Below, piece after piece: positions 1-8,126 of a DNA stretch of 8,126 bases (the first letter of the stretch is position 1; the number at the start of each line of letters is the position of its first letter). The DNA is from a virus (Duplodnaviria; Heunggongvirae; Uroviricota; Caudoviricetes): IMG/VR virus record IMGVR_UViG_2609460125_000011; one strand, 5' to 3'. The notes below the pieces were generated by a model, which was not told the origin of the DNA, ran no database searches, and saw nothing but the letters and a program-made list of their open reading frames with translations. The position numbers and the translations under genes were made by a program.

Positions 1-234
1 GGTGGAAAGCTTCTGGGGAACGCTGAAAAATGAGAGCCTGAGCCACTATCGTTTTAATAACCGGGATGTAAGCCATCTCAGTAATACGGGAATACATTGA
101 GATTTTCTACAATCGTCAGCGTTGTCACTCTCGTCTGGGGAATATCTCCCCGGCAGCCTTCAGGGAAAAATATCATCAGATGGCTGCTTAAAAAAAGAAC
201 AAATGGTAGTGTCCGCTATTGCCAGTACACCTCA
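1..234 (+). mobile_element. 3' end of an IS3-family (IS600-like) insertion sequence, partial; continues left of the window and ends with terminal ...CACCTCA at 234
   Basis: Bases 1-234 are about 98% identical to the reverse complement of 6903-7136. They encode the conserved IS3-family OrfB C-terminus (ESFWGTLKNESLSHYRFNNRD...RRHSRLGNISPAAFREKYHQMAA) followed by a terminal inverted repeat ending in CA. Confidence 0.8.
2..190 (+). pseudogene. IS3-family transposase OrfB C-terminal fragment, frameshifted
   Basis: Translation gives VESFWGTLKNESLSHYRFNNRD, then loses frame at an extra T near position 69 (gatgTaagcc versus gatgaagcc in the other copy). The frame is regained only conceptually, ending ...FREKYHQMAA with stop at 188-190. 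Confidence 0.7.
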
Positions 235-395
235 TTCAGATATGTCAGCAGCCCAAACAGCAGACTCCCCAGCACGCCTATTGCCGCCCACTGAGACGGG
301 GAAACCCTGTCCAGCAACTGCAGGAACCAGTAGCCCGTTCCCACCGCTGACGTGGTGTATGACACACCTGTTGTGATTTTTTCCATCTGGTCCAT
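216..395 (-). pseudogene. S21-type (class II, pinholin-like) holin, 3'-truncated by IS insertion
   Basis: Translation from ATG at 395 is [54 protein letters not shown], with the dual-start Met1/Met4 motif and two hydrophobic segments typical of S21 holins. A GGAG Shine-Dalgarno sits 7 nt upstream. The frame enters the IS terminal repeat at 234/235 and stops at 216 after IS-derived codons (EVYWQ); the charged C-terminal tail is missing. Confidence 0.75.
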
Positions 396-425
396 ACCCC
401 GTCTCCCGTTATCCGGAAGCTGACA

Positions 426-460
426 ACAATAAAAAAGCCACCAGTTAACTACTGATGGCT
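426..460 (-). terminator. Rho-independent terminator immediately upstream of the holin
   Basis: Minus strand reads AGCCAUCAG-uaguuaa-CUGGUGGCU (9-bp stem, one G-U pair) followed by UUUUUUAUUG. Confidence 0.5.
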
Positions 461-702
461 CTGATAACTCATGCAAGCGTCTCAGACGACCCACTGACAC
501 TACCGGTGAGTTTAACGATACCTTCCATTTGACTGGCTCACTTTTTATGATGATGCCGGTGCATTTATCTCCAGCACCAGACTTTCTATCTCAACGCCAT
601 ACGTTGCATTTTTGGTAATATCCGTCAGCGTCAGTGCATTTAGTCCCACTGCCAGACTGTCTTTTATGGCCTGGAATGCCGGGCCAGTACGATGACGTAG
701 TA

Positions 703-906
703 TCACTCCGGCTCAGTTGCACCACTGACCACCACATCACCTTCTGCTGCAATCGCCTGCATCAGGGTATAAGGGGTTATGGCCACCGGACTACCAAACG
801 GCTGCCAGCCCTCTTTCAGTTTATGTGTCAGCTTTTCCGCAAGATCTGACGGCGGCGCCGCCCTGACAACATCATAGTGTTTAAATGCCATGGTTCTTTC
901 CAACAT
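703..906 (-). CDS. Small conserved prophage protein of unknown function (possibly DUF1737-like)
   Basis: 67-codon ORF (MLERTMAFKHYDVVRAAPPSDLAEKLTHKLKEGWQPFGSPVAITPYTLMQAIAAEGDVVVSGATEPE) with normal GC and an SD-like GGAAAG before the internal Met at 891, which may be the true start. Family assignment is from memory only. Confidence 0.5.
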   Translation of the reverse strand: MLERTMAFKHYDVVRAAPPSDLAEKLTHKLKEGWQPFGSPVAITPYTLMQAIAAEGDVVVSGATEPE

Positions 907-1150
907 CTGAAAAATAATTCTTTAAAATACCTGACATGTAATACAGAAAAAACACAAAACCATACCTTAAATAAAAACCTGATTATCAAGCAGATATGCA
1001 TGGATAAACTACAAGACGAGATATAAACCACCCTGCATTTAAATAAACAATAAACAACATCAGAAAAATAATTCTGCTCTATGGTTTAATTCAAAAATAT
1101 CATTTATACTTTTCAGAACATCACCAGCAAGGCATAAACAAGGAAACTAA

Positions 1151-1486
1151 ATGAAGTGGATTGTGATTGATACAGTTATCCAGCCATCATGCGGAATATC
1201 TTTTTCAGTCATATGGAGTAAAATAAAATTAATAATCTGGTATCAATCGGATGCTTTCTTACCTCCTGAAAGTATATTTACACTGACTCACACAGGCATC
1301 ATGCTCAATAACAAAGTGCTACCTGTAACCATTTACAACGTAGTACCATTCAATAAAACATTCTGGAATTTAATCAAAAACAGCCAGGAATGCCCTACAA
1401 ATACAGATAACGTATTGAATGAATGCTTTAATAACCGTTGCACTCTGCAAATATGTCCTTATGGACTAAAACAACAAAGTCCATAA
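1151..1486 (+). CDS. Hypothetical AT-rich cargo protein with a C-terminal four-cysteine cluster
   Basis: 111-codon ORF with AGGAA Shine-Dalgarno 6 nt before ATG, AT-rich upstream region with a TATACT -10-like hexamer, and low GC relative to neighbours. Six of 13 Ile codons are AUA. C-terminus reads [27 protein letters not shown]. No homolog recognised. Confidence 0.5.
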
Positions 1487-1489
1487 GGA
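1456..1489 (+). other. Perfect 12-bp inverted repeat spanning the stop codon of the 1151-1486 ORF; possible terminator or RNA stability element
   Basis: TCCTTATGGACT (1456-1467), 10-nt loop, AGTCCATAAGGA (1478-1489), followed by GTTTACTC. Confidence 0.4.
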
Positions 1490-1521
1490 GTTTACTCACA
1501 TCTGACAAAATCAATATAAAC

Positions 1522-1541
1522 AGCCCCTCCGGAGAGGGGCT
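1522..1541 (-). terminator. Rho-independent terminator for minus-strand transcripts leaving the cargo region
   Basis: AGCCCCTC-tccg-GAGGGGCT hairpin (8-bp GC-rich stem) followed on the minus strand by GUUUAUAUUGAUUUUG. The plus-strand side lacks a U-tract. Confidence 0.5.
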
Positions 1542-1933
1542 GGAGAGTGGCGCTATGTGCCATTCCATGGTGCCGGGTGCCTCCCGGTGAATTCAGTACC
1601 AGCACCTGAATCCGCGATTATCCCATATACCTACTCGCTGATTGCCCCTCCGCACAGGGGGATTCACCATGCCAGTTTCTTTTAACAAACTCCCCGCAAA
1701 CCAGACAACAGTCAACCGCCTGAATTGTGAAGTATTTAAAAATTTCTCCCGCTAACTGATACCCGGCTAACAGTCTGGCGTTTTCTTTTTCAGCAACGGG
1801 AAAGCAACAACCACCACACCCGCCACCAGCACACCGTCAGCCGGCACTGACATTATCCGGCTGCTGCAATGCCATTAACAAAAACAGTAAGCAATCACTT
1901 TTTACCGTAACAGGTGATAATCCAGATATGTAT

Positions 1934-2397: not shown

Positions 2398-2474
2398 TGG
2401 CGCGCTGTACTGGATTCGAACCAGTGACCGATTGCTTAGAAGGCAATTGCTCTGTCCGGCTGAGCTAACAACGC
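2398..2474 (-). tRNA. tRNA-Arg (anticodon UCU), phage-type
   Basis: 77-nt cloverleaf on the minus strand: acceptor GCGUUGU/ACAGCGC, D-stem GCUC/GAGC, anticodon stem AUUGC/GCAAU with loop CUUCUAA, T-arm ACUGG-UUCGAAU-CCAGU, discriminator G, encoded CCA. Differs from chromosomal argU. Confidence 0.85.
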
Positions 2475-2690: not shown

Positions 2691-2715
2691 AAAAAAACCC
2701 GCTCAGCGGCGGGTT
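2691..2715 (-). terminator. tR'-like intrinsic terminator of the short late leader RNA
   Basis: Minus strand reads CCCGCCGCUGAGCGGG followed by a 7-U tract, about 50 nt downstream of the late promoter. Confidence 0.65.
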
Positions 2716-2762
2716 GTAGAAACTCTTCTAACGCCAGGCATAAAACGCCCATCATTATGACG

Positions 2763-2790
2763 AATTTACCACAGATTCCGGAAAAATCAA
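2763..2790 (-). promoter_or_regulatory. Putative late promoter (pR'-like) downstream of Q
   Basis: Minus strand TTGATT (-35), 16-nt spacer, TAAATT (-10), immediately after the Q stop codon and upstream of the tR'-like terminator. Confidence 0.5.
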
Positions 2791-2795
2791 CCTTG

Positions 2796-3617
2796 TTACC
2801 TAGTTACCTTTTTTAACTGCCGCTCAGCCCATGCTTCTTCAATATCAAACCGGGTCACCAGCGCATCATAAAATTTCTTAACTGTTTTTTCCCATGACGC
2901 GCGTGTTATCTGGTTTGTCACCTCGCATATAGCATTAAATGCCTCCGTTGATGGTAGTCTTTCATAGCCACGACCACCACAACGCTGGCAGTCTCTGATA
3001 ACAGGCATACCACGTTTTACCGACTCTTCACGATGAATGGCGACACCACGCCCACGGCAATCCTTACAGGCGGTGGAAACCTCACCCTTTCCGCCACACT
3101 CCGGACAGGCAACTTTTACCACCTCCCTGACTTTTTTCCATTCTTCCCAGTAAGACGGATACACACCTTTCGTACACTTTGCCCATACCGGCGGCTTACC
3201 ATCCGGATACTGGATCTTGTTTGTAAAAACTATGCTTTCAATAAATTTTTCCCCATAGCAACAAGGGCACTGCTTTTTACTCGCTGCGCTGCGGGCATAA
3301 TCCTCAAAAGCGTACGAAGCCATAATGCGCATCACTACCGGTTTTATTTCTGCCGGAAGTTTTCTCAACGCCGCCACACGATCGCACCGACTGAGTGCAT
3401 AATCTGCCAGTAATTCTGTTGCCCGCGCCCTGTCATTCATACTGATGCCCATTTTCCCCAGGAACGCAGAAAAACCCATCTCAGCCCGATTCTGTGTCAT
3501 GCCCTGCGCGGCCATCACATCAGTGATACTCAGCGCATCTTTTGACGTTGAGGCCGATGCATCGGTCAGGCCAGGGGATTTTGGGGAGTAGTATTTCGGT
3601 AAATCTTCCAGTTTCAT
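2796..3617 (-). CDS. Late-gene antiterminator Q-like protein with a DnaJ-like cysteine-rich repeat region
   Basis: 273-codon ORF placed where Q sits in lambdoid phages (after the nin/rusA region, before the late promoter, tR', tRNAs and holin). Contains CPCCYGEK, CPECGGKG, CKDCRGRG and CQRCGGRG motifs. Resembles the QuuQ/YdfT family from memory. Confidence 0.7.
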   Translation of the reverse strand: MKLEDLPKYYSPKSPGLTDASASTSKDALSITDVMAAQGMTQNRAEMGFSAFLGKMGISMNDRARATELLADYALSRCDRVAALRKLPAEIKPVVMRIMASYAFEDYARSAASKKQCPCCYGEKFIESIVFTNKIQYPDGKPPVWAKCTKGVYPSYWEEWKKVREVVKVACPECGGKGEVSTACKDCRGRGVAIHREESVKRGMPVIRDCQRCGGRGYERLPSTEAFNAICEVTNQITRASWEKTVKKFYDALVTRFDIEEAWAERQLKKVTR

Positions 3618-5865: not shown

Positions 5866-6021
5866 TTACTCCTCAGGTTCGTAAGCTGTGAAGACAGCGA
5901 CCTCCGTCTGGCCGGTTCGGATTCGTACCTCGCAGAGGTCTTTCCTCGTTACCAGTGCCGTCACTATGACGGTTAAACAGATGACGATCAGGGCGATTAA
6001 CATCGCCTTTTGCTGCTTCAT
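5866..6021 (-). CDS. hokD: Hok-family type I toxin (HokD/RelF)
   Basis: 51-codon ORF below the ORF-track length cutoff: MKQQKAMLIALIVICLTVIVTALVTRKDLCEVRIRTGQTEVAVFTAYEPEE. Matches E. coli HokD as I recall it and has the Hok-family single transmembrane helix. Confidence 0.85.
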   Translation of the reverse strand: MKQQKAMLIALIVICLTVIVTALVTRKDLCEVRIRTGQTEVAVFTAYEPEE

Positions 6022-6092
6022 AGCCTGCTTCTCCTGTCAACGCAAAGCAGAAGTGTCACCTTCGGTGCGAAACAGAGATGTCATGCTTTGGT

Positions 6093-6380
6093 TCAGAGAA
6101 TGCGTTTGACCGCCTCGCTATATACTTCCGAGCGTTCTCTTTTCCCAACAGAAATCACGAAAACGACAACTTTCTCGTCTATAACCTGGTATACAAGGCG
6201 ATAGCCTGAAGACCGGAGCTTAATCTTGTAACAATCAGGCATACCACGGAGCTTGTTTGCTTCAATCCGGGGTGACTCAAGTACTTCAACCAGCTTCTTT
6301 TTCAACTGTTCACGTACCGTCGAGCCCAGCTTTCGCCATTCCTTTAGTGCCCGCTCGTCAAAATCCAGAAAATACGCCAT
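6093..6380 (-). CDS. relE: RelE mRNA interferase toxin (type II)
   Basis: 95-aa product MAYFLDFDERALKEWRKLGSTV...VISVGKRERSEVYSEAVKRIL is essentially E. coli RelE. Its ATG overlaps the relB stop (ATGA). Confidence 0.95.
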   Translation of the reverse strand: MAYFLDFDERALKEWRKLGSTVREQLKKKLVEVLESPRIEANKLRGMPDCYKIKLRSSGYRLVYQVIDEKVVVFVISVGKRERSEVYSEAVKRIL

Positions 6381-6619
6381 CAGAGTTCATCCAGCGTCAC
6401 ACGTACTGGCTTAGGATTACGAAGCCGTTCTTTCACTATCTCCACAAGTTCAGCATCTTCATCACTCAGGAGTGTCTGTTTGAACGGCAAGCGTTCATTG
6501 TCAGCGATATACTCGAGCATGAGACGAAGCGCTTCAGAAGGAGTTACACCCATTTTTTCAAGCGCGGCGTAAGAACGCGCTTTAAGTTCATCGTCAATAC
6601 GCAGGTTAATGCTACCCAT
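6380..6619 (-). CDS. relB: RelB antitoxin (type II)
   Basis: 79-aa product MGSINLRIDDELKARSYAALEKMGVTPSEALRLMLEYIADNERLPFKQTLLSDEDAELVEIVKERLRNPKPVRVTLDEL is essentially E. coli RelB. Confidence 0.95.
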   Translation of the reverse strand: MGSINLRIDDELKARSYAALEKMGVTPSEALRLMLEYIADNERLPFKQTLLSDEDAELVEIVKERLRNPKPVRVTLDEL

Positions 6620-6700: not shown

Positions 6701-6946
6701 AAAGTAGTCGTAAGAACGGTGATCACTGTCCGCTTTGTGCCAGGAGCAGCCATTGCTAAGTCCATCCTGTATTGTGCAGGTCAGCTCTTTTTTAAAGAGT
6801 CCGGCCATCATCTTACTGGTACAGACACCATATACTTTGTGACGGTCAGGCTACATATGCACAACTCAACTTATTCATCTATTTTTTGCTTTAGCATGTC
6901 AGTGAGGTGTACTGGCAATAGCGGACACTACCATTTGTTCTTTTTT

Positions 6947-7734
6947 TAAGCAGCCATCTGATGATATTTTTCCCTGAAGGCTGCCGGGGAGATATTCCCC
7001 AGACGAGAGTGACGACGCTGACGATTGTAGAAAATCTCAATGTATTCCCGTATTACTGAGATGGCTTCATCCCGGTTATTAAACGATAGTGGCTCGGGCT
7101 CTCATTTTCAGCGTTCCCCAGAAGCTTTCCATCGGAGCGTTGTCGTAACAGTTACCTTTACGCGACATTGATGTTTCAGACCAGACTGCTCCTGTATGAC
7201 CCGGTAATCGTATGCGCAGTACTGTGAACCTCGATCAGAGTGGTGGATTAGCCCGGCAGGTGGGCGCTGGCTCCTGAGCGCCATAAACAGGGCTTTACCT
7301 GTCAGCTCTTTTGTCATGCGCTCTCCCATGGCGTAGCCGACAATTTCGCACGTATAAACATCTTTGATGCCAGCAACATACGTCAGGTCCGCCACCCAGA
7401 CCTGATTTGGTGCTGTAGGAGCGAACGTCTGGTTCAGCAGATTTGGCGCAACTGGCAGATTGTGGTTCGGGTTCGTAGTCGCTCTGAACTTGCGTTTCTG
7501 CTTACAGCGTAGCCTCAGCTCCTTACGAAGACGTGCCAGTCGGTCACGACCAACGATGATGCCATTCTCTGCCAGCTCCGTCTGGAGCCGCCGGGTTCCA
7601 TATGTTTCGCGAGTGCGGATATGTGCCACCTTAATCTCCGGTTTTAGCCGCTCATCACTTTGTTTTCTGTCTGAGGGTTCATGCTGTACCCAGTTGTAAT
7701 AACCGCTCCTGGATACACCAAATACCTGACACAT
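6947..7734 (-). pseudogene. IS3-family transposase OrfB (DDE catalytic domain), frameshifted and internally deleted
   Basis: MCQVFGVSRSGYYNWV...NQVWVADLTYV-AGIKDVYTCEIVGYAMGERMT...LIHHSDRGSQYCAYDY, then loses frame. The conserved C-terminus MSRKGNCYDNAPMESFWGTLK...FREKYHQMAA is present out of frame with single-base losses in A and T runs. The segment after DLTYV that normally carries the conserved GWLYL motif is absent. Confidence 0.75.
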
Positions 7735-7813
7735 CGCTTCAATGGGAAATTGTTGTCGCCATTGTTCGATTAACGCGTATTTTTCAGCGACTCCTGTGCA
7801 AAATACGCTGTTG

Positions 7814-7820
7814 CTTTTTT
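7814..7820 (-). other. A6G slippery heptamer (programmed -1 frameshift site) of the IS3-family transposase
   Basis: Minus strand AAAAAAG inside ...GATATATTAAAAAAGCAA..., at the orfA/orfB overlap as in IS3-family elements. Confidence 0.5.
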
Positions 7821-7848
7821 AATATATCTCGCTCAAGGCGAGCTTCAT

Positions 7849-8037
7849 TTAACGCCTTACGCAGTTGCAGAATTTCAGATTCCAGTTCAGCCACCGTGCG
7901 GTAACCAGGAGTCCTGAGCTCCCTTCAGGCGGCGGTAACCCATAAGCGCCTTCACTGATCGAAAGTTGATTTTCAAGAACCGTTCTGACAGCTTCGGCTT
8001 TGAACTCTTTAGAGTAACGTTGGGTTTTTCTGCTCAT
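7849..8037 (-). pseudogene. IS3-family transposase OrfA (helix-turn-helix N-terminus), disrupted
   Basis: MSRKTQRYSKEFKAEAVRTVLENQLSISEGA... starts at 8037 with a Shine-Dalgarno upstream. The frame is lost before the conserved TVAELESEILQLRKALNEARLERDILKK segment, which is present only in another frame, implying an internal indel. Confidence 0.75.
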
Positions 8038-8126
8038 TATTAGCTCCTTCTGATGCCATTCTATTTCAGGAAGGAGTGTCCGTTAAACTCAGGCTACCTC
8101 ATTTCCTTCGTTTATTTGCATGAATA

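Follow-up and report, generated by a model that had tools for sequence, protein, structure and literature searches.

The holin gene at the left end of the analyzed window (the whole stretch of DNA, 8,126 nucleotides) is very probably a dead 5' stump from a Qin-type lambdoid prophage of Shigella flexneri, joined by IS600 to ydfJ with deletion of the late region. This reading draws on the anatomy of the sequence, the family membership of the gene product, the conservation of the terminator upstream, and a deletion in a nearly identical genome, all of which were observed directly. In the intact state, a gene for a 71-aa holin would head a cassette of holin, ydfR, SAR-like lysozyme, and Rz genes, transcribed only by Q-modified RNA polymerase passing through several intrinsic terminators. 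IS600 would then have joined holin codon 53 to the chromosomal ydfJ, and the DNA lost between these two points would comprise the holin 3' end, ydfR, the endolysin and Rz genes, the virion and tail-fibre genes, and the end of the prophage. As a result, the remaining reading frame would run into the terminal repeat of the IS and yield a 59-aa fusion without a basic membrane anchor or a cytoplasmic tail.

Anatomy and family of the holin gene

A preliminary description of the window had reported a holin gene with a dual start, a terminator upstream of it, and truncation by an IS. All of these elements were found within positions 216-460 on the minus strand, with a PF04971 match for the gene product and a hairpin that folds better than 200 shuffled sequences. 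The features of the gene and of the IS600 copies are as follows.

216-395, minus strand: holin-IS600 fusion ORF of 59 aa; native codons 1-53 at 395-237, plus base 236; base 235 and the IS600 inverted repeat supply codons 54-59 and the stop
384-395, minus strand: two in-frame ATG codons, Met1 (395-393) and Met4 (386-384), with Asp-Gln between them
407-403, minus strand: Shine-Dalgarno sequence GGGAG, just 5' of Met1
218-216, minus strand: stop codon TAG of the fusion ORF, inside IS600
235, minus strand: extra A between the native holin and the IS600 terminus, absent at the other IS600 junctions compared
1-234, plus strand: right end of IS600, comprising the orfB 3' end and the terminal inverted repeat ...CCAGTACACCTCA, cut by the contig end at base 1
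6896-8101, minus strand: second IS600, inverted relative to the first, with both ends present and internally degenerate, bounding the remnant on the ydfV/relB side

The fusion protein matched the Pfam family PF04971 ('Bacteriophage P21 holin S') with an E-value of 5e-23 and 81.2 bits (cut-off 26), residues 5-58 being aligned with profile positions 1-54 of 64, and it also matched PHROG holin families. The layout of transmembrane domains (TMDs) is that of the S21 family, namely a TMD1 of weak hydrophobicity, joined by a short loop to a strongly hydrophobic TMD2. Judged by its sequence, the gene is a member of the S21-family (PF04971) class II holins, of the pinholin type. The exact 59-aa protein is recorded on seven contigs and has an NCBI entry, WP_047577182.1, as 'class II holin family protein [Shigella flexneri]'. 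A GTG at 500, given as the ORF start in a mechanical list of ORFs, was rejected because it lies 5' of the terminator and annotated homologues start at ATG.

The Met1/Met4 dual-start motif pointed out in the preliminary description is correct as a description of the sequence, and Met1 is conserved in E. coli 042, 933W, and Stx2-86 and absent in H-19B. The antiholin character of S21-71 has been attributed to an additional N-terminal positive charge (PMC9636201), whereas the Met1-Met4 extension found here is Met-Asp-Gln, with no basic residue; antiholin function is therefore not to be assumed. In 933W, Tyr-Gln stands between the two Met residues.

Junction between the holin gene and IS600

The window is 100% identical to positions 2270-10395 of L004, a locus on scaffold KN150715.1 in the S. 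flexneri draft assembly GCA_000754175.1. This segment is a whole contig between two 100-N gaps (L004 positions 2170-2269 and 10396-10495). Over 7.4 kb, the window shares 99.92% identity with a sister genome (L003, on a contig of 1.77 Mb in GCA_900457225.1).

Alignment with intact 71-aa homologues showed that the native holin is 100% identical to them up to base 236 (...ACATATCTGA) and divergent thereafter, where the intact alleles continue as CTAACCTGTATTTCAAAATC.... Native coding ends after Leu53 of 71, and codons 54-59 (NEVYWQ) come from IS600, the frame reading 18 nt into the IS before the stop at 216. With the truncation, TMD2 loses its five C-terminal residues (TNLYF), and the protein loses the adjoining Lys and its entire basic tail. 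In exchange for the 18 native residues lost, with six basic and three acidic ones among them, the fusion has NEVYWQ, with no basic and one acidic residue, and the gene does not encode the full length of about 68-71 aa, in which TMD2 is complete and a basic cytoplasmic tail follows it.

The IS600 terminus was fixed at 234 by comparing the window's left end with the second, inverted copy and with three more ends in L003 and L004. At these five junctions, the terminal inverted repeats have a TG start and a CA end, reading TGAGGTGTACTGGC... at one end of the element and TGAGGTAGCCTGAG... at the other. The boundary at 215/216 that the preliminary description implied was rejected, since the comparison of IS600 copies places it at 234/235, so that NEVYWQ and its stop are IS600 sequence. 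Because the boundary had been set about 20 nt too far to the left, the charged tail had seemed to be the only part missing and both hydrophobic segments had seemed to be kept. The loss of the tail stands, but TMD2 is incomplete, with TNLYF and the Lys gone as well.

The IS600 copy adjoining the holin in L003 is 1264 bp long and contains orfA (HTH_Tnp_1) and orfB (rve). It is 99.8% identical to the annotated IS600 of S. flexneri pWR100, and this near-identity places it in IS600 (IS3 family); the copies on Shigella virulence plasmids matched at 99.8% are annotated as 'IS3-like element IS600 family transposase'. Only the last 234 bp of the holin-adjoining IS600 lie in the window. Compared with the intact L003 copy, this left end has C replaced by T at 123 and one additional T at 69, the latter shifting the frame of the final ~40 codons of orfB. 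The copy may be genuinely defective, or the differences may come from misassembly close to the end of the contig. The second IS600 has two internal deletions (~25 and 34 bp) and frameshifts in both orfA and orfB, its middle part being ~98% identical to other copies, and a flank of 25 bp (8102-8126) lies between it and the contig end. The extra A at 235 may have arisen by a point change from the native C, or the rearrangement may have left it behind; as an extra base that fits no simple model, it weighs against the dead-stump reading.

Functional potential of the truncated holin

In a truncation study of S21(68), the C-terminus was dispensable for pore formation only down to Lys56, which anchors the helix at the cytoplasmic face; among substitutions of K56, only Arg could take its place, with reduced function for His and Glu and very little function for hydrophobic residues (bioRxiv 10.1101/2021.04.20.440580). 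The fusion protein resembles the engineered truncation S21-56 in that it also has 56 residues when counted from Met4 and thus shares the same end point. It differs in residues 51-56, which are NEVYWQ instead of TNLYFK, with Gln at position 56 and Glu at position 52, and no basic residue follows TMD2. The IS-coded V-Y-W stands by chance where the native protein has L-Y-F. These comparisons suggest that the fusion protein is severely impaired or inactive.

It is very unlikely that the fusion is instead an active membrane-depolarising toxin, fired by read-through under a resident or superinfecting Q in a manner resembling abortive infection. Such a role would agree with an open ORF in which both starts and the Shine-Dalgarno sequence are unchanged, with an end point that corresponds to residue 56 of S21(68), where the shortest variant with reported pore formation also ends, with the resemblance of V-Y-W to L-Y-F, and with the retention of the Q gene and a candidate pR'. 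However, the Lys56 anchor is now Gln, an acidic residue has been brought in at position 52, and substitutions of K56 other than Arg are reported to reduce or nearly abolish function. In addition, the stump is 100% identical to intact alleles, so that nothing indicates selection on it, and IS-driven gene loss is pervasive in these genomes, with IS600 and IS1 copies flanking the remnant. We therefore keep to a dead stump as the preferred reading, against which it must be counted that the fusion ORF has acquired no further mutations while keeping both starts and the ribosome-binding site, and that the IS-encoded tail gives it the exact length of a functional engineered truncation, with residual pore-forming activity a possibility.

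Deletion between the holin gene and ydfJ

In L003, the order of genes is ydeP, a fimbrial gene, IS1, a partial IS600, ydfV, relB, relE, hokD, rem, a DUF968 gene, rusA, Q, and further genes up to the truncated holin. Past the holin, the order is a full IS600, a truncated ydfJ ('ydfJ), ydfI, ydfZ, rspR, ydfG, and dcp. The preliminary description had advised looking to the left of the IS for the holin 3' end and an endolysin gene. In L003, this place is taken by the full IS600 and then directly by the chromosomal ydfJ, and the holin 3' end, ydfR, lysozyme, and Rz are absent beyond the IS. Linkage of the holin to SAR endolysin and spanin genes was found neither in the window nor in L003. In the genome of E. 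coli WAT, a ydfJ remnant is preceded by ynfT-ydfK-pinQ-tfaQ and a tail fibre gene, which form the distal end of a Qin-type prophage, and the match of L003 to this genome starts 267 bp inside the ydfJ remnant.

Simple insertion of IS600 produces a 3-bp target-site duplication. The flanks of the element in L003 are ...CTGAA (GAA) on one side and CCCATC... (CCC) on the other and carry no such duplication; in E. coli, they derive from loci many kb apart. Because the target duplication is missing and the flanks come from distant loci, simple insertion explains these data less well than an adjacent deletion mediated by IS600 or a recombination event involving two IS600 copies.

A simple insertion, in which the rest of the holin gene and the endolysin and spanin genes would lie intact past the IS and outside the window, is very unlikely. 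Since the window breaks off at a scaffold gap after 234 nt of the IS, it is silent on the far side, and it is this silence that speaks for such an insertion. Nevertheless, the far IS600 end abuts ydfJ in the contiguous L003 without the 3-bp duplication, and the same IRL-ydfJ junction is present on a neighbouring contig of the window's own scaffold. The earlier observation that no endolysin or Rz gene follows the holin in the window is accurate, but it carries no weight as evidence of loss, for the same reason of where the window stops. More generally, windows ending inside an IS at a draft-contig boundary cannot show that downstream genes are missing, and a contiguous relative is needed.

The deletion is thus demonstrated in the sister genome, and for the source strain we only infer it, because the window's own assembly has a scaffold gap where the DNA past the IS would be. 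This gap, together with an orientation of the contig opposite to that in L003, counts against the dead-stump reading. Measured against the flanking ydfJ and ydeP, the contig may be reversed either through a scaffolding artefact or through an actual inversion between the oppositely oriented IS600 elements. The holin/IS600 junction had no exact match in a collection of species-representative genomes, as expected if an E. coli genome represents Shigella there, and none of the complete E. coli genomes in RefSeq carries it; for window positions 1-1500, the best matches there stop at base 236.

Even an active stump could not lyse the cell, because the endolysin and spanin genes have been lost. The proposal in the preliminary description that the lysis cassette is dead while cargo and toxin-antitoxin genes are kept is therefore supported, and it is strengthened by the succession of IS600 and ydfJ in L003.

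Late operon and the terminator upstream of the holin

Three features of the late operon of the remnant bear on the expression of the holin gene.

2796-3617, minus strand: intact antiterminator Q gene, 273 aa (PF03589, E = 6e-55)
2696-2790, minus strand: candidate late promoter (TTGATT at 2790-2785, TAAATT at 2768-2763) and tR'-like terminator (hairpin 2715-2696 followed by T7), directly downstream of Q
424-462, minus strand: intrinsic terminator found by scan and folding, with a hairpin at 462-434 (9-bp G+C core extended by A-U pairs), T6 at 436-431, and then ATTGTTG

The hexamers of the late promoter were read by eye and are below the scan threshold; the tR'-like terminator was obtained from the scan and lies 80 nt downstream of the Q gene. 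At least three minus-strand terminators (2715-2696, 1542-1521, and 462-434) are located between Q and the holin gene. The Q product would be needed to read through those upstream of the holin, and the holin gene would probably be transcriptionally silent without Q. The earlier proposal that holin expression needs Q-mediated read-through is thus reasonable, given an intact Q gene and these terminators upstream.

An extension of this dependence on Q would have the fusion keep enough pinhole activity to serve as a Q-triggered suicide gene, whose premature expression depolarises the cell and aborts a superinfecting lambdoid phage, so that the stump would be an exapted defence and not debris. We regard this as highly unlikely.

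The terminator reads, in 5'-3' direction, AGAGCCATCAGT-AGTTA-ACTGGTGGCT followed by TTTTTTATTG (462-424). It was detected as a 12-pair hairpin with a T run and is the second-best terminator-like site in the window. The folding energy of the hairpin is -18.6 kcal/mol, compared with -9.4 +/- 2.3 for shuffled sequences (z = -3.9), and none of the 200 shuffles folds as well. Its T6 run ends at 431, 35 nt before Met1, in agreement with the preliminary description, which had placed an intrinsic terminator about 30 bp upstream of the holin.

The G+C-rich hairpin and U-tract are identical, base for base, in the intact prophage of E. coli 042 and in phage vB_EcoS-640R1, both of which keep the holin-ydfR-lysozyme-Rz series, and the hairpin is conserved in the Stx phages 933W, Stx2-86 (Stx2 phage 86), and H-19B. 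The nine core pairs are retained across these five phage and prophage sequences, which form a small sample, with one compensatory change from A-T to G-C in H-19B; the hairpin of 933W has one mismatch and one G-T pair. Because inducible Stx phages that are competent for lysis have the terminator in the same place, between S and the nanS-p-type gene, its sequence conservation identifies it as standard late-operon architecture, a normal part of the Q-dependent operon and no mark of inactivation. The hairpin likely keeps transcripts of the upstream accessory genes from extending into the lethal lysis genes, and polymerase modified by Q would pass it. A literature search turned up papers on the Q-S region, none of them on this hairpin between nanS-p and S.

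The preliminary description had taken the terminator as a sign of inactivation, and this part of it does not hold. A lineage-specific silencing feature that helps to inactivate the cassette is extremely improbable, for although a strong hairpin and U-tract stand just 35 nt from the start codon, the idea is refuted by their identity in E. coli 042 and vB_EcoS-640R1, both with full lysis cassettes, and by the structure kept in 933W, Stx2 phage 86, and H-19B. A terminator before a lambdoid holin gene is normal late-operon design and is not to be taken as evidence of decay.

Other contents of the prophage remnant

The remnant is a fragment of ~6.7 kb, from ydfV to the truncated holin, between two inverted IS600 copies. 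In addition to the genes described above, it contains the following features.

545-906, minus strand: nanS-p-type gene remnant directly upstream of the terminator, with a DUF1737 ORF at 703-906 and a 53-aa ORF at 545-706
1151-1486, plus strand: IraM-like gene, 111 aa, on the strand opposite to the late operon, with a PmrD-family Pfam hit; the E. coli homologue is named 'anti-adapter protein IraM' in RefSeq
1512-1701, minus strand: full-length match to the sRNA STnc100 (Rfam RF02076, 124 bits against a gathering score of 47)
2576-2651 and 2398-2474, minus strand: tRNA with a CAT anticodon and tRNA-Arg (TCT), downstream of Q, with a spacer of ~100 nt
5866-6619, minus strand: intact-looking genes for a hokD-type Hok toxin (51 aa), RelE (95 aa), and RelB (79 aa)

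No integrase, repressor/immunity, replication, or virion genes were found in the remnant. It is not an inducible prophage, and because these genes are absent, the test by mitomycin C suggested earlier is moot for this element.

The DUF1737 ORF corresponds to the N-terminal 58 residues and the 53-aa ORF to the C-terminal 50 residues of a 634-aa PHROG family (nanS-p / YjhS-type esterase). The esterase gene is thus internally deleted. As E. coli 042 and phage 640R1 have this deletion too, it is older than the IS event. The IraM-like gene is moron-type cargo retained in the remnant. STnc100 sits between the tRNA genes and the IraM-like gene and has its own strong terminator at 1542-1521. The tRNA with the CAT anticodon was called as Met by ARAGORN; its counterpart in E. 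coli 042 is annotated as tRNA-Ile in RefSeq. Homologues of rem and ydfV are also kept, and the series is the same as in the Qin prophage of K-12.

Taken together, one IS600 removes the whole late region of a Qin-type prophage, and relBE, hokD, Q, the tRNA genes, the sRNA, and the IraM-like gene stay. This is ordinary IS-driven prophage decay without a new mechanism, in which the protein product had already been catalogued as WP_047577182.1. Its significance beyond annotation is little, although it offers a clean and traceable case of IS600 eroding lambdoid prophages in Shigella flexneri. A literature search combining IS600, prophage, holin, and Shigella found no paper, and full-text searches for the two assembly/contig accessions likewise found none.

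Comparison with intact relatives and known systems

More than 700 complete E. coli genomes contain prophages that match positions 236-1500 of the window at 99.5-99.7% identity. The 71-aa holin gene of E. coli 042 and of phage vB_EcoS-640R1 is followed by a YdfR-family gene, lysozyme, Rz, and terminase genes. The lysozyme of the intact relatives has a Gly/Ala-rich hydrophobic N-terminus, which would fit a SAR endolysin acting as partner of a pinholin.

A 53-aa partial form of the holin, cut at contig ends, is indexed in 1372 blocks of the protein collection, and the seven contigs displayed come from seven different draft assemblies. The contigs examined (L012-L021) are ~10.4 kb long and end 0-2 nt from base 236 (equivalent to window positions 236-238). 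Their prophage is 1.2% divergent from the window, with mtfA-integrase on the far side. For the repeat that ends more than 1000 draft contigs at this holin position, no complete E. coli genome with the arrangement was found; the holin region of FDAARGOS_944, the best partial match, is intact and differs from this one.

A close known counterpart is the pinholin S21 of phage 21, with its S21-68 holin and S21-71 antiholin. The gene described here shares with it the PF04971 family, two in-frame starts three codons apart, and the TMD1/loop/TMD2 layout, and the intact relatives likewise pair the holin with a SAR-like lysozyme and Rz. In contrast, only 53 of 71 native residues remain here, without the Lys anchor, the basic tail, or the last part of TMD2, and Asp-Gln stands between the two Met residues where S21-71 has its extra positive charge.

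The Stx phages 933W, Stx2-86, and H-19B and the prophage of E. coli 042 contain the same module of nanS-p-type gene, terminator hairpin, and holin. The holins of Stx phages have been assigned to the class of P21 S family pinholins in a published survey (PMC10462455). The native part of the stump is 100% identical to the 042 prophage and to phage 640R1, and a wider query was ~97% identical to Stx2-86 and ~94% to 933W. Unlike the remnant, the Stx phages and 042 keep the full 71-aa (or 68-aa) gene and the lysis genes downstream.

The cryptic Qin prophage of E. coli K-12 has the gene order ydfV-relBE-hokD-rem-ydfU-quuQ ... essQ-ydfR-rrrQ-rzpQ ... ydfK-ydfJ. The remnant differs from Qin in being cut on both sides by IS600, in carrying RusA, and in having tRNA genes, STnc100, and the IraM-like gene between Q and the holin, and it is without everything from holin codon 54 to inside ydfJ. 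Nevertheless, it shares with Qin both the chromosomal neighbourhood ydfJ-ydfI-ydfZ-rspR-ydfG and the series ydfV, RelB, RelE, HokD, Rem, DUF968, and Q.
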